From a virus: a stretch of DNA of 64,000 nucleotides. Shown piece by piece: positions 52 through 33,303 of this stretch. The position numbers were made by a program, and so were the translations under genes. Where the stretch lies: positions 32,001 to 96,000 of IMG/VR virus record IMGVR_UViG_3300036715_002842; one strand, written 5' to 3'. How positions within the stretch are numbered: the stretch's first letter is position 1; each line of letters starts with the position of its first letter. The notes beneath the pieces are model-generated. The model was not told the DNA's origin and did not search any database. It was given only the letters and a program-made list of their open reading frames with translations.

Positions 52-126
52 TGGTGCCCCCGGTGGGGTTCGAACCCACGACCTGAAGATTATGAGCCAT
101 CTGCTCTGCCGCTGAGCTACAGGGGT
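52..126 (-). tRNA. tRNA with CAU anticodon (Met or Ile2)
   Basis: Reverse complement folds as a cloverleaf with anticodon loop CTCATAA, T-loop TTCGAAC and encoded CCA. A1-C72 mismatch; Met versus Ile2 cannot be resolved. Confidence 0.85.
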
Positions 127-168
127 ATTGGTATATTGGTTTGACTTGAGGAAAGATGGATTTCGGAA

Positions 169-252
169 TGGTACCCCTTCTCGGACTCGAACCGAGACGC
201 TCGAAAGCATAGGACCTAAACCTATTGACTGGACCAATTCGTCTAAAGGGGC
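169..252 (-). tRNA. tRNA-Leu(UAG)
   Basis: Anticodon arm ATAGG-TTTAGGT-CCTAT, long variable arm, A73 and CCA. Confidence 0.9.
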
Positions 253-277
253 ATTTGATCTTCTGTCCTTACTATTG

Positions 278-362
278 TGGAACCCGCAACCGGGTTTGAA
301 CCTTACCACACGCGGATATCAGTTCCGCCACGCTCGCATTGGTTGATGAATTAGGCGGATTC
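278..362 (-). pseudogene. Degenerate tRNA-like sequence
   Basis: Ends in GCGGGTTCCA, has a GGTTCAAACC T-loop-like element and a GCGGA-ACTGATA-TCCGC hairpin, but no normal D arm. Confidence 0.45.
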
Positions 363-515
363 ACCACTGGTCGGTTTTCCCTCCCCATTAAGACCAGTGC
401 GCACCAGCCTTAACTACGGTCGACCTTTACGGTTCTCTGGGGCTAAGCCACTTGAATCCGATAGGTGGTACCCGTTCTCGGAAATGACTTAACGATACGA
501 AGAGCCGTCAAGAAT

Positions 516-591
516 TGGAGCCCACAACCGGGTTCGAACCGATGACCTCCTGATTACAAAGCAGGTGCTCTACCAACTGAGCTATGCAGGC
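516..591 (-). tRNA. tRNA-Thr(UGU)
   Basis: Canonical 76-nt cloverleaf, loop TTTGTAA, CCA end. Confidence 0.95.
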
Positions 592-610
592 AAAGGTGTC
601 GGACTGAAAC

Positions 611-1048
611 TTGAAGGGCCATCCGACTGCCACTCAAAGGTGGGTGCATATATCGCTAGGCCGAAGGTATTTTGGATGCGGTAGATCTAAGAGATCCGAA
701 GTCCTTGACAGTTTTGGAAAGAAGGTTCTTCTTGACTCGACTTACGAATTGGAGGTTTCGGAACTTTTGAATCAGCTTGGAATTCGTTGGATTAGACCCA
801 AACCATTGAGTTGGTATTTGGAGGGCAAGCAGCACCTATACCACCCAGATTTCTTTTTAACGGATTTCAATCTCTATCTGGATCCGAAGAACGACTATCT
901 AGCTCGAATTGATGTAGGGAAAATTTCCCTAGTAAGTTGGCAGAACGCAGTTGTAATTCGAATTCTAACCAAGAAGCAAATTACACTTGAGTATCTGAAA
1001 GGATTGGTAGCCCCGGAGAATTTTGAAATCTCGACCTACCGCGTGTAA
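611..1048 (+). CDS. PD-(D/E)xK endonuclease domain, likely a truncated homing endonuclease
   Basis: DSTYE...HLYHPDFFLTDFNLYLDPKN resembles phage PD-(D/E)xK nuclease domains. Antisense to the tRNA array, 3' end overlaps tRNA-Val, and the start is a weak TTG. Confidence 0.55.
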   Translation: MKGHPTATQRWVHISLGRRYFGCGRSKRSEVLDSFGKKVLLDSTYELEVSELLNQLGIRWIRPKPLSWYLEGKQHLYHPDFFLTDFNLYLDPKNDYLARIDVGKISLVSWQNAVVIRILTKKQITLEYLKGLVAPENFEISTYRV

Positions 1049-1079
1049 GGCGATTGCTCTACCTCTGAGCTACAGGGCT
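1005..1079 (-). tRNA. tRNA-Val(UAC)
   Basis: Cloverleaf with loop CTTACAC, A73 and CCA. Confidence 0.9.
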
Positions 1080-1080
1080 A

Positions 1081-1735
1081 AGGTCGGGGATTCTTCAGCG
1101 GCGCCACCTAGGAGATCCCCTACAATTGCCGCCTGCTGGGGACTAGCATTGCTGCCCCACCCTCACCACCAGGTCTACCGAGTTAGGGCCTGATCCTGGA
1201 TTAAGATCCGGCCCCCTTGACCGGTGCGCACAACTGATCTTGTTCGGGGAACTGGAGTCCCGGCCGGATGACAACTCCAACTCCCCTTCAACCACCGCCC
1301 TCGAGGGGTAACAGTGAACCGAAGTCCACAGTGGTCGATCTAGTTCGGGGACCCACCACCCGCGTGGTTGCAGGTCCCCTTCGGACGCCTGACGGCCAGT
1401 CCGATCTTTAAGATATTCGGGAGTTCACGCCTCACTCCCTAGCGTCCAAGACTTTGCGGCGAAGTGACAATCCTAAGATCGTCTCCGAAGTTGCAGAGCA
1501 TCTTCGTGTAGCGCGTGGATCCTTTTGTAACTTTGACAGTTTCCAACAACCTTTAGAGGGAAGTCTTTCACTATCCTGGAGATTGCGGGAGTAGGTGCTG
1601 TGTCGGGCACCACGACCTTCAGAAGCAAGAAGAGGCTTGAATGACCGTCCAAGTATCTCTCCACCCTCACACGCGGTAGGCGTGGGGCTCGTCCTTCTGT
1701 TCCAGACCGGTTTCTGGCTGTGTACCGGTAAATGC
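1081..1735 (-). ncRNA. Candidate large structured ncRNA A (~650 nt)
   Basis: No credible ORF. Continuous series of GC-rich hairpins and a repeated junction motif, located between two tRNAs of one operon. Confidence 0.55.
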
Positions 1736-1810
1736 TGGTGGACCTGGAGGGAATTGAACCCCCGACATCTGCCTTGCAAAGGCAGCGTTCTCCCGCTGAA
1801 CTACAGGCCC
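1736..1810 (-). tRNA. tRNA-Ala(UGC)
   Basis: GGGCCTG acceptor strand with G3-U70, loop TTTGCAA, CCA. Confidence 0.95.
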
Positions 1811-1846
1811 GTGCTGTCAAACAACTTAATCTTTAACCTACTTTGT

Positions 1847-1921
1847 TGGTACTCCCAGTTGGAATCGAACCAACGTCTAGAGCTTAGAAGGCTCTTGCTA
1901 AATCCCCTCAGCTATGGGAGC
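1847..1921 (-). tRNA. tRNA-Arg(UCU)
   Basis: Anticodon arm AGAGC-CTTCTAA-GCTCT, CCA end. Confidence 0.9.
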
Positions 1922-1924
1922 GAA

Positions 1925-2007
1925 TGGAGGCCCGGTGGAGAGTCGAACTCCTAACCTTTCGGACGAGGGTTGCAATCTCGCGCCAGTCCACACCAGCTTC
2001 CCGAGCC
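1925..2007 (-). tRNA. tRNA-Cys(GCA) with tRNA-Sec-like (selC*-like) fold
   Basis: GCA anticodon and U73-CCA. Also a 6-bp D stem with 4-nt loop, extended anticodon stem, CC-GAAA-GG variable hairpin and 4-bp T stem. Confidence 0.8.
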
Positions 2008-2025
2008 TAGGTCTTGCATCTTGAA

Positions 2026-2102
2026 TGGTAGCCCAGGTGGGAGTCGAACCCACAGAACCCAGATTTTGAATCTGGTACCTATACCAATTCGGTTACTGAG
2101 CC
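2026..2102 (-). tRNA. tRNA-Leu(CAA) lacking the long variable arm
   Basis: CCAGA-TTCAAAA-TCTGG anticodon arm, 5-nt variable loop, A73 and CCA. Confidence 0.88.
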
Positions 2103-2291
2103 ATTGAGTACGTGGCGGACCCTTTCATAGTTTCCACCCTTTGGAGTCAATCCAACTTGTAGTAGGATTTGACGAATGTTTTTGCAAGTTTTAGACGCTT
2201 CTGAAATTTGCTCATCTGTTACTTTTGTCTTGCAGTTGATGTTTCTTCCTCGGTACGTTTCAGTTTGGCTATGACAGTTTGGACATAGAAG
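2103..2291 (-). pseudogene. HNH homing endonuclease C-terminal remnant
   Basis: Manual translation LLCPNCHSQTETYRGRN...NIRQILLQVGLTPKGGNYERVRH matches the end of the HNH motif typical of phage tRNA-region endonucleases. No start or N-terminal half. Confidence 0.75.
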
Positions 2292-2305
2292 AGAATTTTA
2301 AGGAT

Positions 2306-2587
2306 TGGTGCGCCCGGCCGGAATCGAACCGGCACGCTCTTACGAACAACAGATTTTCATCCTACTTCATGTTGCCATGACCGTTTCCGTTGTAGGCTGG
2401 ACTATCCCTTGACCTTATCCGAGGACTTAGGCCCCCACCGTCTAGTCTCTACACCTTCCTATTTCTAGGCTTGGCTCGGGATTGTCCTAAGGAGTTTCCC
2501 CGAATTTGATGGGATTCACGCTGGAGGTTTCCGACCCAGGTGCTCAAATCATAAGTCTGTGGCGTCTACCAGTTCCGCCACGGGCGC
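2306..2587 (-). tRNA. tRNA-Leu(UAA), split by a group I intron (exons 2553-2587 and 2306-2357)
   Basis: Joining ...CAGACTT to AAAATCTG... restores the loop CT-TAA-AA. Long variable arm and CCA. Confidence 0.92.
2358..2552 (-). mobile_element. Group I self-splicing intron (IC3-like, 195 nt, no ORF)
   Basis: Starts after U and ends in G. Core motifs CAAATTCGGGGAAAC, GTAGAGACTAGACGG and AAGGGATAGTCC. Inserted U^AA in the anticodon, as in cyanobacterial and plastid tRNA-Leu introns. Confidence 0.92.
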
Positions 2588-2716
2588 AAAAGTTAGGGCT
2601 CGCTACGACACTTCCCACCTATCGATGGATCAACATGCCACCGGGTCTTACGGCCACACCTAACACAACCTCCGATTTACCCAAGATAATCGGTTTAAAA
2701 TACTGCTTGGGGCAGT

Positions 2717-2804
2717 TGGAGCGGGAGATGGGACTTGAACCCACGATGGACTTTCGTCACGTCAGCTTGGAAGGCTGATGCCTTAACCACTAGGCTACAC
2801 CCGC
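2717..2804 (-). tRNA. tRNA-Gly(UCC) with an atypical long variable arm
   Basis: GCGGG acceptor, TCAGC-CTTCCAA-GCTGA, U73-CCA and a 17-nt variable region containing GAC-GAAA-GTC. Confidence 0.88.
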
Positions 2805-2939
2805 TTTGGAGAAACCTGGAAAATTTCATCCAGATTTCAAGGTAGAAGGAAAATTTGTGGCAACGTGATGACATTCGCTACTACGTATCCCCAAGCCTAA
2901 CACTCTAGGTAGCTTGGTTTATGTCAAGAGGACTTTTAT

Positions 2940-3308
2940 TGGTGGAGGTGGGGGAAATCGAATCCCCGTCCGAAAAGCTTCAGAAGGTAATTCATTCACA
3001 GGCTTAGTTCGAATCTAGTGACCTCTGTGGAGGATCGAACAACTCCAATCGAGGACTTGTTCCTTTGTCTCAACTGGAAGCCAGGAACACTCTTCCAATC
3101 CAGTTTATCTCTTCACCTCAGCAGGACGAATCCACCCTCGGATCTGATGCAACTAGGCTACTAAACGATCACCTAGAGGTTGCTGCTTACGCAGCCTGGA
3201 GAAAACGATCGTTTTCGGCAGTTGTGTTTGTTGGGCTTTTTAGGAGGCCAGCCCACCTCCGCCTGCACTACACTCCGGATTAGCCATCCGTCGAAACCTG
3301 GCACCCCC
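2940..3308 (-). ncRNA. ssrA: tmRNA, tag peptide (A)AENDRFLQAA* at 3187-3219
   Basis: 5' GGGGGTG...TTCGAC and 3' GGACGGGGATTCGATTTCCCCCACCTCCACCA with G3-U70. Internal resume frame ends Ala-Ala-TAA. Confidence 0.96.
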
Positions 3309-3441
3309 AAGAGTTGGATTGGCTTGTAGGACCAATCCTGAGAGATCGTTACATTTGGTTTGCACCTACTAACGATTCACACCTTAGCACCGGTTCACCT
3401 TCCACCGAAAGGTTCCCCAAGTTGCTTAGACCTGGGAATTG

Positions 3442-3512
3442 TAGGTCCAGAGGGTATCGAACCCTCTTCCTCGCCTTAAAAGGGCGATGCTTCACCTTAA
3501 AGCTTTGGACCC
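3442..3512 (-). tRNA. tRNA-Lys(UUU), CCA not encoded
   Basis: TCGCC-CTTTTAA-GGCGA anticodon arm and GGGTCCA/TGGACCT acceptor. Confidence 0.88.
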
Positions 3513-3604
3513 GTTTGATGGGGATAGGAGGCAATGACCCATTCGGAGCCGCCTACCGTTAACCCATGCTGGACCCCACGGTCAGACCAGCATGCCCAAG
3601 ATTC

Positions 3605-3680
3605 AGACCAAAGAGTGGGTTCGAACCACTGTCCTCCCCAGACGTGCTGGGCGCTCTGACCGGCTGAGCTACCTTGGTCC
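3605..3680 (-). tRNA. Atypical tRNA-like RNA (ACG in a 5-nt loop, no U33, no CCA)
   Basis: Canonical D and T arms and acceptor stem, but the anticodon arm is CCCAG-CACGT-CTGGG. Confidence 0.6.
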
Positions 3681-3684
3681 TTTC

Positions 3685-4524
3685 CAGCTAGTGCACTAGC
3701 GTCAACAAGCCCGGATGTGGGTCTAGAACTCCACGGGGCTTGCAGGGAACTGATTGGTGGTAGCCCGATCCTCTGCTACTGAGCAAGTTGACCGGCACCT
3801 CATCGGGATGACGACCAACTGGCACCGAAGTGCACCACGGGGCTTGCAGGGAACTGATTGGTGGTAGCCCGATCCTCTGCTACTGAGCAAGTTGACCGGC
3901 ACCTCATCGGGATGACGACCAACTGGCACCGAAGTGCACCAAAGAACTACTTCACTCCCTCCTTTCTCCGGAGCAGCTCGAACTTCGCTGCCGCGGCCAG
4001 AAGGGATCCTGACTGAACCACCGCCTGCAACTGCGAGACGGTCATCCTACGCACGCTCTCTGCGTGCTTGCTTGATTGTGCCATGGGGCACCTCCTTCCA
4101 ACAAGTTGTTGGAAGGTCTTACGTGTCTGCGTACCTCATCGTTGCTCCTTTTGGAAAAGTGGAAGGATCGGGTTCGGTGTTATTTCACCCTCCAGGTCGT
4201 GTAACGTCCTAGGGAAGTCCCACCCGATTTCTTGAAGATATTTGGTTGGGGATTGGTGGCCACCGCACCCCAACCTACCTGTCGGTCCTATTGCCGTGGA
4301 TCGTTCATTCCCAACCTCCACGAGGAGTAGGTCCTTTTCGTCCCTGTTGGCAGCGACCGGTCTGTGCCGGGCTCACCGCTAGTTCTGTGGAGTCAGGGCT
4401 CCAGACATCCCGAGGGGAATTTGCACGGGACGATCTTGTGTTACAGAAAGGTACGAGTAGGAGTTCGCAAAGCTCCATTCTCCACTCATTGCGGAGATCC
4501 TGCACTTGGAGGTGATACTCGTAA
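3685..4524 (-). ncRNA. Candidate large structured ncRNA B (~730-840 nt)
   Basis: No credible ORF. Many perfect helices, e.g. 4452-4459/4516-4523, 4094-4103/4107-4116 and 4051-4067. Lies inside the tRNA operon. Confidence 0.55.
3731..3941. repeat. Exact tandem duplication of a 104-bp unit
   Basis: 3731-3834 is identical to 3835-3938. Confidence 0.95.
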
Positions 4525-4601
4525 TGGTCGGCTATGAGTGATTCGAACACTCGACCTTCGCGACCCAAACGCGACGCGCTACCAGGCTGCGCTAATAGCC
4601 G
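4525..4601 (-). tRNA. tRNA-Pro(UGG)
   Basis: C1-G72, loop TTTGGGT, A73 and CCA. Confidence 0.95.
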
Positions 4602-4798
4602 GGAGGACTCGGTTTTAGTGGAGTTGACTGGAACCCGACCCCGAGTCACCCAGTTGCGCTGCTCCGCTGGGATGCCGGAGGTATTCACCGCTTTCGCGGG
4701 GCGCTGGAGGTCCCCTCAGTCAGTGGGAACCGGGGTCTAACACCTGATGCGCTTTTCGCTCTTGGGCCGCTTTTCATGACCGTTCAGGCAGTTACCTT

Positions 4799-4872
4799 TG
4801 GTTAGGGTGGTAGGATTCGAACCTACGAGGGGAGCGTCAAAGACTCCTGGTTTACCGCTAGCCTACACCCCA
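4799..4872 (-). tRNA. tRNA-Gln(UUG)
   Basis: U1-A72, GGAGT-CTTTGAC-GCTCC, CCA. Confidence 0.92.
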
Positions 4873-4999: not shown

Positions 5000-5028
5000 A
5001 GGATAGGGTTGAGGGTAAAAATTGTCAA
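5000..5028 (-). promoter_or_regulatory. Sigma70-type promoter of the tRNA/tmRNA operon
   Basis: TTGACA-N17-TATCCT upstream of the first tRNA. Confidence 0.75.
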
Positions 5029-19518: not shown

Positions 19519-19639
19519 TGGGTGGTTCCTTTCGAGTTGGATTCATTACATTTCAGACGCTACCGTATGGCGTACCTGTGGGTGTATCCCCTTGAATTCT
19601 GGCTCGTAGTGTTTCAAAGCGGTTTCACTCTTAAAAAAG

Positions 19640-19711
19640 TCCCCACGGTGGTAGTCGAAACCACGACACAGTGTTTTAGAAGCACCTGCTCTACCGTTGA
19701 GCTACGTGGGG
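19640..19711 (-). tRNA. Amber-suppressor tRNA (anticodon CUA), CCA not encoded
   Basis: CCCCACG TA GCTC AACGGTA GAGC A GGTGC TTCTAAA ACACT GTGTC GTGGT TTCGACT ACCAC CGTGGGG A. Canonical spacing places CUA at 34-36. Confidence 0.85.
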
Positions 19712-21408: not shown

Positions 21409-21698
21409 TTTTCAAAGATTCGAAGGTCGCCCAGATCGAACGAGACCTGTATTCCGAACGAGTCCTTCGCAGCTTTTTCTAACTTTGCAACCAGAACGTG
21501 AACTGGAGGATCTACGGAGTTGTCACACTCACCCCGCTTTATTTCCAGGATTCTTGAGGACTTGAAGCAAAGATAGAAGGATTCTTCATCAAATTCCATA
21601 TAAAACGGGGAAGTAGCCATTCCCACCCGGTAATTGATATCCGGGGACCATTTGAAATATCTTTGTGAAACGGTTTTCATAAGTTCACGAATTTTCAT
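21399..21698 (-). CDS. Hypothetical protein
   Basis: Overlaps both neighbours on the same strand. Confidence 0.55.
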   Translation of the reverse strand: MKIRELMKTVSQRYFKWSPDINYRVGMATSPFYMEFDEESFYLCFKSSRILEIKRGECDNSVDPPVHVLVAKLEKAAKDSFGIQVSFDLGDLRIFEKCH

Positions 21699-23380
21699 AT
21701 TTTCACCAATTCAAATTTTAATTGTCCGCAATCCCAGATTCGAAGGATTCCCGCTTGATCCATAATTTCTTTCTGCGTTCCAGAAAGGTGTGGAAATCTC
21801 TTTGATAACTTATCGTGTGTGTAGTTCAAACGGTTGATTCTGAAGTCTCTGAAATTTTCAAAACCATGAAAACTGGGCGGAATTTCACCCACAAGACTGA
21901 AACCAGTTTTTAGATACAATTCCCCACGACTCCAACATCCATCAGCAAAGGTGTAAATTCTTTTCCAATTTACCTTTCTTTTGAAGTGTTCGAGAAGTTT
22001 AGAAAATCCACCTACAACACTGCAAGAGGTTGCGTAACGATTGAGATCGTAGGACCCATTTCCCATGGATTTGAGGGTTAACATCGCAACGAGAGCACCC
22101 CCATTCTGAAGCGCGTAGGTTATCGAACCAGCGCCATCCCCTTTGATATGATTTGTCTCATAGAAACTCTTCTTTTGCTGTGAAGTTGGAATTAAGATTG
22201 AACATTTTCTAGCAAAAACTCTTTCTTTTTCTAATCCAACGAAAGCTCGAATTTTCTTTTCAAGTAGGGTTCTCTTAAGTAACCAATCATCCGACCAGAT
22301 ATGAATCAACCTAATTCCCAACCGTTCACATTCGAGGGTCTTTTCGTGGTGGTACTCTGGTTTTTGATGGAGTTCTGAATGCCAGTAAAGACCGTTGTAT
22401 TCAAAAGCTAGTTTGAAATCTGGTAGATAAACATCTATTTCTTTTCTAGATTCAGAAATCTTACCCACCATTTTCGCTAGTTTCTGAAAAGATAACCTTG
22501 CTATCGTTTTCAATTCTAGAGAATCTATGAAGTCAATGAAAGATCTTTCTTCCGCACTACTTCCCTGGTTAGCAAAACCTCTTAACTCCAAATTGGAGTA
22601 TTTCCAGAAGTAATTCGAAGCACCTGCCGCGTTGATTCCAAGTTCAGCTGCAATCTGATCAATACTTCTTTGTTTGTTGCAATACTCTTCTTTCCAGAAT
22701 TCTTCTGAAGTAATTTTTTCGATGATTGCTTGAGGAAGCTTAGGTCTTTGAACAATTCTGCGTCCCCTCGAACTCTGGATAAAATGGGCCACACCATACT
22801 TTCTTAGACTAGTCTCCCTACTTTTCAACTTTATTGATTCAAGTACCGCTGGATTTTCTACCCCATATTTCTGTAAACAGGTGGCTTTCATCTTTAATCT
22901 TATTGATTTTTGTAAGTCAACATTTTTCAATTTCTCCGATATTTTTTCTTTGACTTCCACCGCCTGACTAGCGTTTTCAACTCCAAACCTTTCCAAGTTA
23001 GTTTCTTTCATTCGTTGCTTAACTATATCGGATTGAGCTGGGTGATGAGTTCCATAGTGATTTTGAGAAGTTTCGGCTTTCTTCTTCTTAACTATATCAG
23101 ATTGACTAGCATTTTCAACTCCGAACCGTTCCAAGTTCGTTTCTTTCATTCGTTGCTTAACTATATCAGATTGACTAGCATTTTCAACTCCGAACCGTTC
23201 TAAGTTCGTTTTTCTACACTTGTCAAGAATTTCTTCTTTAGAGGTCTCTAAAATTCGAAGTCTACTTTCACTTTTTCTTTTTCTTGTTGCTGGACAAGAG
23301 TTTGCGGATTTTCCACATCGAGAAGGTTTTTCCGGTGGAAACACCGCAATTAAACCACACCCATACTTACACAACTTCAT
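21695..23380 (-). CDS. Putative free-standing homing endonuclease (Hef-like: 23-aa repeats plus a PD-(D/E)xK/Vsr-like domain)
   Basis: TNLERFGVENASQ repeats (69-bp period, about 22960-23215), EIDVYLPDFKLAFEYNGLYWHS, LIHIWSDDW, RIWDCGQ; AT-rich. Confidence 0.8.
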   Translation of the reverse strand: MKLCKYGCGLIAVFPPEKPSRCGKSANSCPATRKRKSESRLRILETSKEEILDKCRKTNLERFGVENASQSDIVKQRMKETNLERFGVENASQSDIVKKKKAETSQNHYGTHHPAQSDIVKQRMKETNLERFGVENASQAVEVKEKISEKLKNVDLQKSIRLKMKATCLQKYGVENPAVLESIKLKSRETSLRKYGVAHFIQSSRGRRIVQRPKLPQAIIEKITSEEFWKEEYCNKQRSIDQIAAELGINAAGASNYFWKYSNLELRGFANQGSSAEERSFIDFIDSLELKTIARLSFQKLAKMVGKISESRKEIDVYLPDFKLAFEYNGLYWHSELHQKPEYHHEKTLECERLGIRLIHIWSDDWLLKRTLLEKKIRAFVGLEKERVFARKCSILIPTSQQKKSFYETNHIKGDGAGSITYALQNGGALVAMLTLKSMGNGSYDLNRYATSCSVVGGFSKLLEHFKRKVNWKRIYTFADGCWSRGELYLKTGFSLVGEIPPSFHGFENFRDFRINRLNYTHDKLSKRFPHLSGTQKEIMDQAGILRIWDCGQLKFELVKI

Positions 23381-31160: not shown

Positions 31161-31478
31161 GTGAGTAAGGTACGACACGTCTACGGCACCTCAGTTGATG
31201 ACCGTAAAAGGGCAATCGCTAACCTTCAGTTTGCCCTGGAGGATAAGGCTCTCTGGTACATGAATTGTAAGTATCGTCCAAACAAAACCGCGATTGCAAA
31301 GGGAAAATTTTGTAATTGGATCACAAAGGACACCTTTGATCTAGCTTGTAAAGCGATTATCAATGCAACGGACCCCATCTATTTCTACACGTTCGGAGAC
31401 ATGGTAGAGTTGGATGGGCAGAAGATCACTGAGTTCGCAAACTGGGACTCAATGGACCTTCGTAAGATATCTGGTTAG
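31161..31478 (+). CDS. Hypothetical protein
   Basis: GTG start after a GAGG RBS. Confidence 0.55.
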   Translation: MSKVRHVYGTSVDDRKRAIANLQFALEDKALWYMNCKYRPNKTAIAKGKFCNWITKDTFDLACKAIINATDPIYFYTFGDMVELDGQKITEFANWDSMDLRKISG

Positions 31479-31485
31479 ATTGATC

Positions 31486-33303
31486 ATGAATACCTGGTAC
31501 AAGAGATATCTTGACTTAATTGGATTGAAGTATCCGGGTGACAGTATTTTTATCAAGAAGAACCCAGAGTTCTGTTCAAGTGTTCTCAATGCAACTTCTA
31601 AATGTTCTTCAAACCTCCCCATCCTTTCAAGGGTTCTTCTTCTAGATATGGGTTTGGAGATTGAACCTCCATGTATAATTTGTGGTAATAAATCTATTTG
31701 GTGGAAGGATCCACACAATCCTTCCAGCGGTTGGAAGGATCACACCTGTTCTGCCTCTTGTAGTCGAAGGGCCGTAAGAGTTCTTCGTGGTGAGACTCTT
31801 ATAGAAAAGCAGAAACAAACGGTTAGGAATCGTTATGGTGTTGAGAATGTTGCGACGCTGAAAGAAGTTCAAGAGACTATTAAGAAAACCAACTTGGAGA
31901 GGTTTGGAACCGAAGCCTCTTCGAGGTCCTTGGTTGTACAAGAAAAGAAACTTAGAACTATTCGAGAACGTTATGGTGTTGATAACGTTATGCAGGTAGA
32001 TAATATTAGAGAGAAAGTAGAGAAGACTTGCCTTGAGAAATTTGGTTTCAAGCATGCTGCTAGTTCTGAAACCGTGAAAGATGCAACAAAGAAGACTAAC
32101 TTGGATCTGTATGGTTGCCCTTACCCAATGCAGAATATAGATGTTAAAAGGAAGAGACTCGAAACTTTTCGAGAGAGATTCAGTGTAGATCATCCAATGC
32201 AGACTGAAGAATATAAGGTCAAGCTCAAATCAACTTTGAAGGTATTATATGGAACCAGAAAAATCGGTTGGCGCTATAAATGCCCAACCGATGTGGCAAT
32301 AGAAAAGTTGAAATCCCGTGAATTTTGGAATTCTGAACATGTTCAGAATAAGAAGAGTCTTCATCAAATAGCGAGAGAACTTAACACTACCAGTTCGACC
32401 GTAGCAATTTATTTCTTCAAATACAGCGGTTTACCCAAAATTCTAATTCGATCTGGCGTTTCTTCCGAGGAACAGAACTTCTTTTCCTTCTTGGAATCAA
32501 AAATAAGTGGGATTCTTCAATCTATTCCTTTAAGTTCCCTCGGTGGGAAGAGTAAAAGATCCTTGGATGCCTACATTCCACAGCTAAATTTAGCATTTGA
32601 ATACAATGGGGTATATTGGCATTCAGAAAAATTTCGTTCTTCTAGGGAGCACTTAGAGAAGACCTTAGAGTGTGAAAAACTTGGCATACGGCTTATCCAC
32701 GTGTGGTCGGACGATTGGATATTCAAACAAGAACTCGTGAAGAAAAAGATTTGTTCGTTACTGGGTTTAGAATTCCAAAAGGTATATGCGAGGAAGTGTG
32801 CCATCGTTTCTGTAGATAGTAAGAAGAAGAAGAATTTTTACAGCACGAACCATATCAAGGGAGATGGTGTTGGCTCAATAAGTTATGGTCTCCAATACGG
32901 TGGGCAACTTGTAGCACTTATCACTTTCAAAAATATTGGGAAGGGAATTTACGATCTCAATCGTTACGCAACCTCTTGCAGTGTTGTAGGTGGATTCAGC
33001 AAATTACTCAGTCATTTCAAGAAAAATACTAATTGGTCAAAAATCTATACCTACGCAGATCGAAGTTGGAGTCGTGGGGATGTGTATCTTAAAACTGGAT
33101 TTACCTTCCTGTCGGAAATTCCACCCTCTTTTCATGGTCTAGAAAAAGACCGAAGAGTTAACCGCTTGAATTATACCCACAAAAAACTATCCCGTAGGTT
33201 CCCAACTGCGGTTGGAACCCAGGATCAGATCATGAGTAGTGCCGGTATACTTAGAATCTGGGATTGTGGGCAGTTGAAGTTCGGAGTGACTAACCATGGC
33301 TGA
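31486..33303 (+). CDS. Putative free-standing homing endonuclease, paralogue of 21695-23380
   Basis: RYGVENV/TNLERFG repeats, AFEYNGVYWHS, LIHVWSDDW, and YDLNRYATSCSVVGGFSKLL identical to the paralogue; AT-rich. Confidence 0.8.
   Translation: MNTWYKRYLDLIGLKYPGDSIFIKKNPEFCSSVLNATSKCSSNLPILSRVLLLDMGLEIEPPCIICGNKSIWWKDPHNPSSGWKDHTCSASCSRRAVRVLRGETLIEKQKQTVRNRYGVENVATLKEVQETIKKTNLERFGTEASSRSLVVQEKKLRTIRERYGVDNVMQVDNIREKVEKTCLEKFGFKHAASSETVKDATKKTNLDLYGCPYPMQNIDVKRKRLETFRERFSVDHPMQTEEYKVKLKSTLKVLYGTRKIGWRYKCPTDVAIEKLKSREFWNSEHVQNKKSLHQIARELNTTSSTVAIYFFKYSGLPKILIRSGVSSEEQNFFSFLESKISGILQSIPLSSLGGKSKRSLDAYIPQLNLAFEYNGVYWHSEKFRSSREHLEKTLECEKLGIRLIHVWSDDWIFKQELVKKKICSLLGLEFQKVYARKCAIVSVDSKKKKNFYSTNHIKGDGVGSISYGLQYGGQLVALITFKNIGKGIYDLNRYATSCSVVGGFSKLLSHFKKNTNWSKIYTYADRSWSRGDVYLKTGFTFLSEIPPSFHGLEKDRRVNRLNYTHKKLSRRFPTAVGTQDQIMSSAGILRIWDCGQLKFGVTNHG

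Follow-up and report, generated by a model that had tools for sequence, protein, structure and literature searches.

The tRNA/tmRNA operon and its 656-nt gap

The window analysed here is a stretch of 64,000 nt covering bases 32,001-96,000 of the 105,575-bp IMG/VR record IMGVR_UViG_3300036715_002842, which has an estimated completeness of 38%. The source virus is an uncultured jumbo phage with rIIA-like, DnaB-like, and helicase genes, and its rIIA is only 28-36% identical to those of the nearest cultured phages. Public runs containing this phage's sequence are sediment and microbial-mat metagenomes, with no RNA runs among them. The window opens with a tRNA/tmRNA operon of approximately 4.9 kb on the minus strand (bases 52-4872). 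In it, ARAGORN called 12 tRNA genes, accompanied by a tmRNA and an intron-split tRNA-Leu(UAA), giving at least 13 tRNA genes in all. The following features frame the locus:

5000-5028, minus strand: sigma70-like promoter match TTGACA-17-TATCCT, the sole such match upstream of the array
2940-3308, minus strand: phage tmRNA with tag peptide AENDRFLQAA (131.8 bits), within the tRNA array
2306-2587, minus strand: tRNA-Leu(UAA) split by a group I intron of 195 nt (57.5 bits in Rfam; also called by ARAGORN when introns are permitted)
1736-1810, minus strand: tRNA-Ala(UGC), CCA encoded (69.4 bits)
1005-1079, minus strand: tRNA-Val(UAC), flanking the 3' side of the element
611-1048, plus strand: endonuclease-like ORF of 145 aa (phrog_15137, 7e-11), antisense to the operon and overlapping tRNA-Val

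The element under study is the 656-nt gap at 1080-1735, with tRNA-Ala on one side and tRNA-Val on the other. A first-pass annotation of this DNA, made from the sequence alone, had placed it within a tRNA array, and it does sit inside the minus-strand operon between these two genes. It is a non-tRNA segment on the tRNA strand, in the transcription unit and bounded by tRNA processing sites, as are rnaC and rnaD of phage T4. The operon, including the element, is presumed to start at the promoter-like site at 5028-5000. There are no real terminator-like sites on the minus strand within the array; one match, at 3630-3614, is a tRNA T-arm. Given a single promoter-like site and no terminator-like site within the array, it is reasonable to infer that the element is released by processing of the flanking tRNAs. 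Transcription from 5028-5000 would run across the tRNA/tmRNA operon on the minus strand, 3' trimming of tRNA-Ala would set the 5' end of the element, and an RNase P cut at the 5' end of tRNA-Val would set its 3' end at 1080.

Several smaller observations concern the array itself. The 145-aa ORF at 611-1048 matches phage endonuclease and resolvase-like families, and its placement recalls segB of the T4 tRNA cluster. The tRNA-Leu(UAA) intron occupies the classic site of the cyanobacterial and plastid intron and is a possible pointer to the host; taken with the mat habitat, it may hint at cyanobacteria. Default ARAGORN overlooked tRNA-like pieces on the minus strand at 278-338, of which 278-302 is a 3' end 88% like that of tRNA-Thr and 312-338 is similar to the 5' portion of the tRNA-Leu that carries the intron. 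It also overlooked a low-scoring tRNA-Cys-like call at 1925-2007 on the minus strand.

The interval was described as having no credible ORF, and this is borne out: its ORFs reach at most 115 aa, overlap tRNA-Ala or one another, and have no Pfam or PHROG match. The comparison with GOLLD, ROOL, and other families to which the first-pass annotation had pointed gave no Rfam match in the interval, either with 5.2 kb or with a 666-nt interval alone, at the gathering score and at E up to 10. The GOLLD (RF01998) covariance model, which covers a conserved 3' domain, was unmatched at either threshold, and so was the ROOL (RF03087) model; the setting, a phage array with 13 or more tRNA genes, is one in which GOLLD RNAs are found (phage or prophage, near tRNA genes). 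Neither covariance models nor ARAGORN detected a tRNA, tmRNA, or group I intron within 1080-1735. As for hidden tRNA genes, relaxed ARAGORN settings returned just one plus-strand call, with a low score and no assigned type. A group I intron does not fit, as the boundaries are not U...G and no model matches. A TA-duplicating mobile element was considered because TA is present at both ends, but terminal inverted repeats were not seen when the ends were read. The YrlA model, representing Y RNAs that act with a Ro60-like protein, was unmatched in the interval, and no TROVE or RtcB gene was matched in the 105 kb, a weak gene test in a record holding about 38% of the genome. No antisense match longer than 14 nt to other parts of the phage was present within the 105 kb.

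Relatives of the element were sought in three kinds of collection. When the 5.2 kb were compared by blastn with 50,697 phage records, matches were confined to the tRNAs and the intron. Pattern scans for the modules and the core in viral and metagenome contigs gave isolated hits with no tRNAs nearby, at approximately the number expected by chance (an estimate), and a pattern scan of 185,579 species genomes likewise gave isolated chance hits and no similar sequence. Neighbouring genes were also used as anchors. A 1674-aa neighbour led to 80 loci with local repeat matches only and no similarity to the element, a 274-aa neighbour and rIIA led to no relatives, and a 196-aa neighbour belongs to a cluster of three members. 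Across the phage records, viral and metagenome contigs, and species genomes, no homologues of the modules or core were found beyond the sister strain described below.

Repeated linkers and folding on the minus strand

Read on the minus strand, the element carries the motif AGAUC-hairpin-GAA-GGGGA..UCCCC-GAAC in two full and several degenerate copies. A 15-nt repeat, GATCTnGTTCGGGGA, lies at 1236-1250 and 1337-1351 with a spacing of 101 nt, and an 8-nt repeat, TCCCCTTC, lies at 1282-1289 and 1375-1382; degenerate copies were found at 1403-1423 and 1212-1219. The recurrent minus-strand junction reported in the first-pass annotation is thus present as described there, and so is the modular design, with conserved linkers and unlike hairpin interiors. 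Between copies, the linkers are identical at 14/15 and 8/8 bases, and the hairpin bodies have no residual similarity. We estimate that pairs of 15-mers with at most one mismatch would arise by chance about 0.01 times in 656 nt, not yet counting the second motif at matching spacing. Since 101 nt is not a whole number of codons, the repeats fall in different frames and do not encode a peptide repeat. A CRISPR array or solitary-repeat mimic would have identical 28-37-nt repeats, and here the repeated parts are 15, 8, and 5 nt with differing hairpin bodies. A repeat RNA of the type III antitoxin kind would have near-identical repeats of about 34-40 nt, but the copies here recur every 101 nt and have only their linkers in common. 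A clustering of GATC, as potential Dam sites, was also discarded because GATC is equally dense across the genome (7.5 per kb). The parts of the element, from 5' to 3' on the RNA strand, are these:

1574-1735, minus strand: 5' domain of the core, 162 nt, common to the sister phage
1123-1573, minus strand: strain-specific block, 451 nt, across which the sister contig joins 1122 to 1574
1446-1573, minus strand: leader of the block, 128 nt, 46% G+C, z -0.27, with no folding signal
1419-1439, minus strand: m0, a degenerate unit with a GGGAG..CUCCC hairpin followed by GAAU (z -2.37)
1343-1407, minus strand: module 1, with AGAUC at 1403-1407, hairpin A1 at 1383-1402, GAA, hairpin B1 at 1347-1379, and GAAC
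1242-1341, minus strand: module 2, with AGAUC at 1337-1341, hairpin A2 at 1290-1336, GAA, hairpin B2 at 1246-1286, and GAAC
1185-1240, minus strand: module 3, degenerate, with AGAUC at 1236-1240, a weak A segment, CAA, hairpin B3 at 1185-1216, and AAC
1138-1158, minus strand: m4, a further G4/C4-closed hairpin (z -2.21)
1086-1120, minus strand: m5, the terminal G4/C4-closed hairpin followed by GAC (z -1.0), inside the 41-nt stretch (1082-1122) that the sister retains

The series m0, B1, B2, B3, m4, and m5 shares a hairpin base of the form GGGGR...YCCCC on the minus strand, and successive B-type hairpins are separated by the linker GAAC-N-AGAUC, then hairpin A, then GAA. Only two modules are complete, the outer ones being degenerate. 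Hairpin A1 is 20 nt long; A2 is 47 nt, branched, and has a cUUCGg tetraloop that is correct only when read on the minus strand. In the predicted folds, the pair above the common GGGGA/UCCCC base varies, with C-G in B1, G.U in B2, and U-A in m5. The G4/C4-closed hairpins are clustered, with three distinct ones within 300 nt among the 24-32 raw hits that each strand gives across 105 kb, a raw number that counts shifted versions of one hairpin.

The first-pass annotation had also seen near-continuous GC-rich helices, and all five that it named (1086/1120, 1246/1286, 1347/1379, 1381/1404, and 1419/1439) occur in the minimum-energy fold of the minus strand. The continuity, however, is partly an effect of G+C content, since the interval is 58-60% G+C against approximately 47% in coding DNA and three of its four sub-regions fold no better than shuffled sequence. 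For the whole interval, the minus strand has a z of -1.93, with 0 of 20 shuffles as stable. The modules at 1190-1445 fold at -108.3 kcal/mol on the minus strand (z -2.23; 1/100 shuffles) versus -90.0 kcal/mol on the plus strand (z -0.74). For the 5' domain (1574-1735, z -0.38), the leader, and the 3' end, minus-strand z values lie between -0.4 and +0.4, no better than shuffles, and the corresponding plus-strand values are +0.5, -1.6, and +0.5. Among the single G4/C4-closed hairpins, five of six (m0, B1, B2, B3, and m4) reach minus-strand z values of -2.2 to -3.05, with m5 at only -1.0. B1 folds at -22.3 kcal/mol on the minus strand (z -3.05) versus -18.6 on the plus strand, B2 at -21.8 (z -2.83) versus -15.9, and B3 has a minus-strand z of -2.86. 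The modules-only signal and the greater stability of the minus strand indicate that folding signal is on the RNA strand and confined to the modules. The proposed assignment to the minus strand is therefore supported, and an excess of folding energy over shuffled controls is found for the modules and not for the other three sub-regions.

Comparison with a co-occurring sister phage

Logan contigs from four runs were aligned to the array. They revealed, in the same samples, a sister phage that is approximately 93% identical over 1574-1964 and two to five times as deeply covered as this one (16-32 versus 6-7). In runs X1 and X4 the sister contig joins 1122 to 1574, with 41 letters on the short side of the joint; up to about 150 unaligned letters could lie between, so the block is absent wholly or mostly. 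From this joint it follows that the sister keeps the 5' domain and m5 and lacks all or most of the 451-nt block, in which every module except m5 falls. The number of G4/C4 hairpin units is roughly one in the sister versus four to six in this phage, and the core kept there (1574-1735 plus the hairpin at 1086-1120) amounts to about 200 nt. One uniform RNA of about 650 nt, as first proposed, does not describe this locus, which is instead a composite of the shared core and the block.

Differences between the two phages extend along the array, which has several other large indels in the sister. From 1082 the sister contig passes via 10 other letters to 584, in a tRNA that aligns with tRNA-Thr, and it is without the endonuclease-like ORF segment and tRNA-Val. 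Elsewhere, a 27-nt insertion lies just downstream of the tmRNA on the RNA strand (behind plus-strand base 2915), and a sister-strain contig joins 3314 to 4477, skipping tRNA-Lys, tRNA-Arg, and a second G+C-rich, ORF-poor gap of 845 nt at 3680-4524. Within that gap is an exact 104-nt tandem duplication at 3731-3938, either real or an assembly artefact. Unless it is an artefact, this suggests that duplications of about 100 nt occur in the array.

The shared core allows its substitutions to be read against its predicted fold. At least 16 substitutions, or about 10% of positions, fall in 1574-1735; the fold comparison used 16 listed changes, with about 7 more substitutions and 6 gap positions in 1574-1964 outside the list. 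With these 16 sister changes, the minimum free energy of 1574-1735 goes from -51.7 to -53.0 kcal/mol. When these changes are instead placed at random, the value is -43.9 ± 3.7 kcal/mol, and 0.9% of placements are as stable as the sister. One hairpin stands out:

1630-1663, minus strand: hairpin showing compensatory evolution, with all six of its substitutions at or next to stem positions

The changes in this hairpin convert a G-C pair to A-U, create a new C-G pair, and turn three G.U pairs into Watson-Crick pairs. Its apical loop, CGGUCA, is unaltered, and 0.5% of random placements are as stable. The core hairpin at 1663-1689 loses three pairs in the sister. With pairs gained in one hairpin and lost in the other, the evidence from the core is good for one helix and mixed overall.

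A putative accessory RNA and its alternatives

The interval is a real, modular, non-coding element of the minus strand, and the tRNA operon probably carries it as an accessory structured RNA, which we regard as putative. The reading we prefer, with about an even chance of being correct, is that of a co-transcribed RNA that has grown by duplication of a G4/C4-closed hairpin and whose linkers are selected as binding or tertiary sites. Such an RNA would have two layers. The first would be the core of about 200 nt (1574-1735 and 1086-1120), with a shape held by selection on RNA pairing. The second would be the 451-nt block, its 3' 260 nt built from units of hairpin B, GAAC-N-AGAUC, hairpin A, GAA, and hairpin B. 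The block may have grown by tandem duplication of the terminal G4/C4-closed hairpin unit of the core, and m5 is likely the ancestral unit of the series. The helix bodies have given way to dissimilar but still pairing sequences while the linkers stayed near-identical, so the linkers appear to be the selected part. Set out between stable helices, they would most likely serve a protein as repeated docking points or act as sites of tertiary contact or processing. The close and more abundant relative without all or most of the block indicates that the modules are accessory and dosage-like rather than essential. Its lack of the block also argues against an important function. Further points against the preferred reading are that there are only two full modules and that the core and the 128-nt leader fold like shuffles.

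A more specific proposal, which we consider speculative and improbable, is that the module block is a multi-site RNA of variable copy number in which the GAAC-N-AGAUC and GAA linkers bind or bait a host or phage factor. That factor could be, for example, a defence nuclease, an RNA chaperone, or a processing enzyme, and the dose of sites would differ among co-occurring strains. If true, the proposal would describe a novel type of phage accessory RNA in tRNA operons.

The alternative with the strongest claim, although we still judge it unlikely, is a non-functional spacer with fast turnover. The array would then be a recombination mosaic, possibly driven by the endonuclease, and the hairpins would be tolerated debris of duplication and swapping, with structure serving only transcript stability or the separation of tRNA processing sites. 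The absence of all or most of the block from a close, more abundant strain with other large indels in its array is as expected of such a spacer, as are the adjoining endonuclease-like ORF, the lack of homologues in the collections searched, and z values near 0 in three of four sub-regions. Neutral decay, however, should not leave 14/15 and 8/8 linker identity beside dissimilar bodies, nor helices that are kept with different sequences in a strand-specific manner, and the substitutions in the core preserve structure. Another alternative is an expandable decoy or mimic RNA that titrates a host RNA-binding or RNA-cleaving defence factor in an arms race, with a strain-dependent copy number. The linkers are conserved like would-be recognition sites, the unit number is unequal in co-occurring strains (roughly one versus four to six), and the expansion of pseudo-ToxI repeats in phage PhiTE provides a precedent (PMC3475682). 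We nevertheless rate a decoy as quite improbable. The repeats of type III antitoxins are 34-40 nt and nearly identical, whereas here the units recur about every 101 nt and differ in their bodies; there is no known cognate toxin or host, and the pattern scan of 185,579 species genomes yielded no similar sequence.

Two further explanations place the element at the level of a single fold or of DNA. One ornate RNA of the GOLLD/ROOL kind, with a single 650-nt fold that possibly self-assembles via palindromic GAUC linkers, would suit the size and the tRNA-island setting, and there are several GAUC-containing linkers and loops. It is very unlikely, as neither model is matched even with E allowed up to 10, the sister strain is without two thirds of the RNA, any long-range architecture is no stronger than in shuffles, and GATC is common genome-wide (7.5 per kb). 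The suggestion of one large GOLLD- or ROOL-like RNA also fails on the three of four sub-regions that fold no better than shuffled sequence. Repeated protein-binding sites, an origin, or an endonuclease target would need no RNA at all, and two 15-bp repeats 101 bp apart beside an endonuclease gene could be read in this manner. Folding stability is strand-asymmetric, though, with G.U pairs on the minus strand, only two exact copies exist, GATC is not enriched, and the element is located inside a transcription unit, which leaves a DNA-level role as the least probable of these explanations.

Extra RNAs in phage tRNA clusters have long been known, among them rnaC and rnaD of T4 and, near tRNA islands, GOLLD and ROOL. 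By position, the nearest known counterparts of the element are T4 rnaC and rnaD with segB. In the annotation of the T4 tRNA cluster, rnaC (species 1) is 139 nt, rnaD (species 2) is 119 nt, both are of unknown function, and segB belongs to the same cluster. Like them, the element is a non-tRNA, non-coding segment on the tRNA strand of a phage tRNA operon, beside a homing-endonuclease or homing-endonuclease-like gene. In contrast, it is four to five times longer, is internally repeated, and is only a putative stable RNA. It also lacks the tRNA-like T-arm of rnaC, and its similarity to rnaC or rnaD is limited to chance matches of 7-9 nt. GOLLD (RF01998) and ROOL (RF03087) resemble it in being phage-encoded, several hundred nucleotides long, and often near tRNA islands. 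They have one conserved ornate fold in many genomes, whereas the element is a local chain of hairpins that is mostly strain-specific. CsrB and RsmZ belong to the multi-site, protein-titrating RNAs, in which a short conserved motif is repeated between or on variable hairpins. The element also repeats a short conserved motif among variable hairpins, but without the GGA motif pattern, an Rfam match, or a candidate binding protein. Pseudo-ToxI of PhiTE is likewise a non-coding, tandem-repeat RNA of a phage with an unequal repeat number between close variants (PMC3475682). ToxI units are near-identical 36-nt pseudoknots cut by ToxN (PMC3475682), whereas the bodies of the element differ and it has no known nuclease partner.

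To these systems, the locus adds a natural presence/absence pair, two co-occurring phages of which one lacks all or most of a modular RNA block and whose shared core shows structure-preserving change. If the modules are functional, the sister pair is a ready comparison for finding that function. If they are not, the case shows how fast G+C-rich hairpin chains may be gained and lost in tRNA arrays, and it is a caution for calling large non-coding RNAs from single sequences.

The phage has a few other features of note outside the array. Two large paralogous HNH-type homing endonuclease genes lie at 21695-23380 on the minus strand and 31414-33303 on the plus strand (phrog_3339; E 5e-107 and 6e-115). 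A solitary tRNA with the anticodon CUA, the amber suppressor type, lies 15 kb off the array at 19639-19711 on the minus strand, and the long genes of the phage are open under the standard code.
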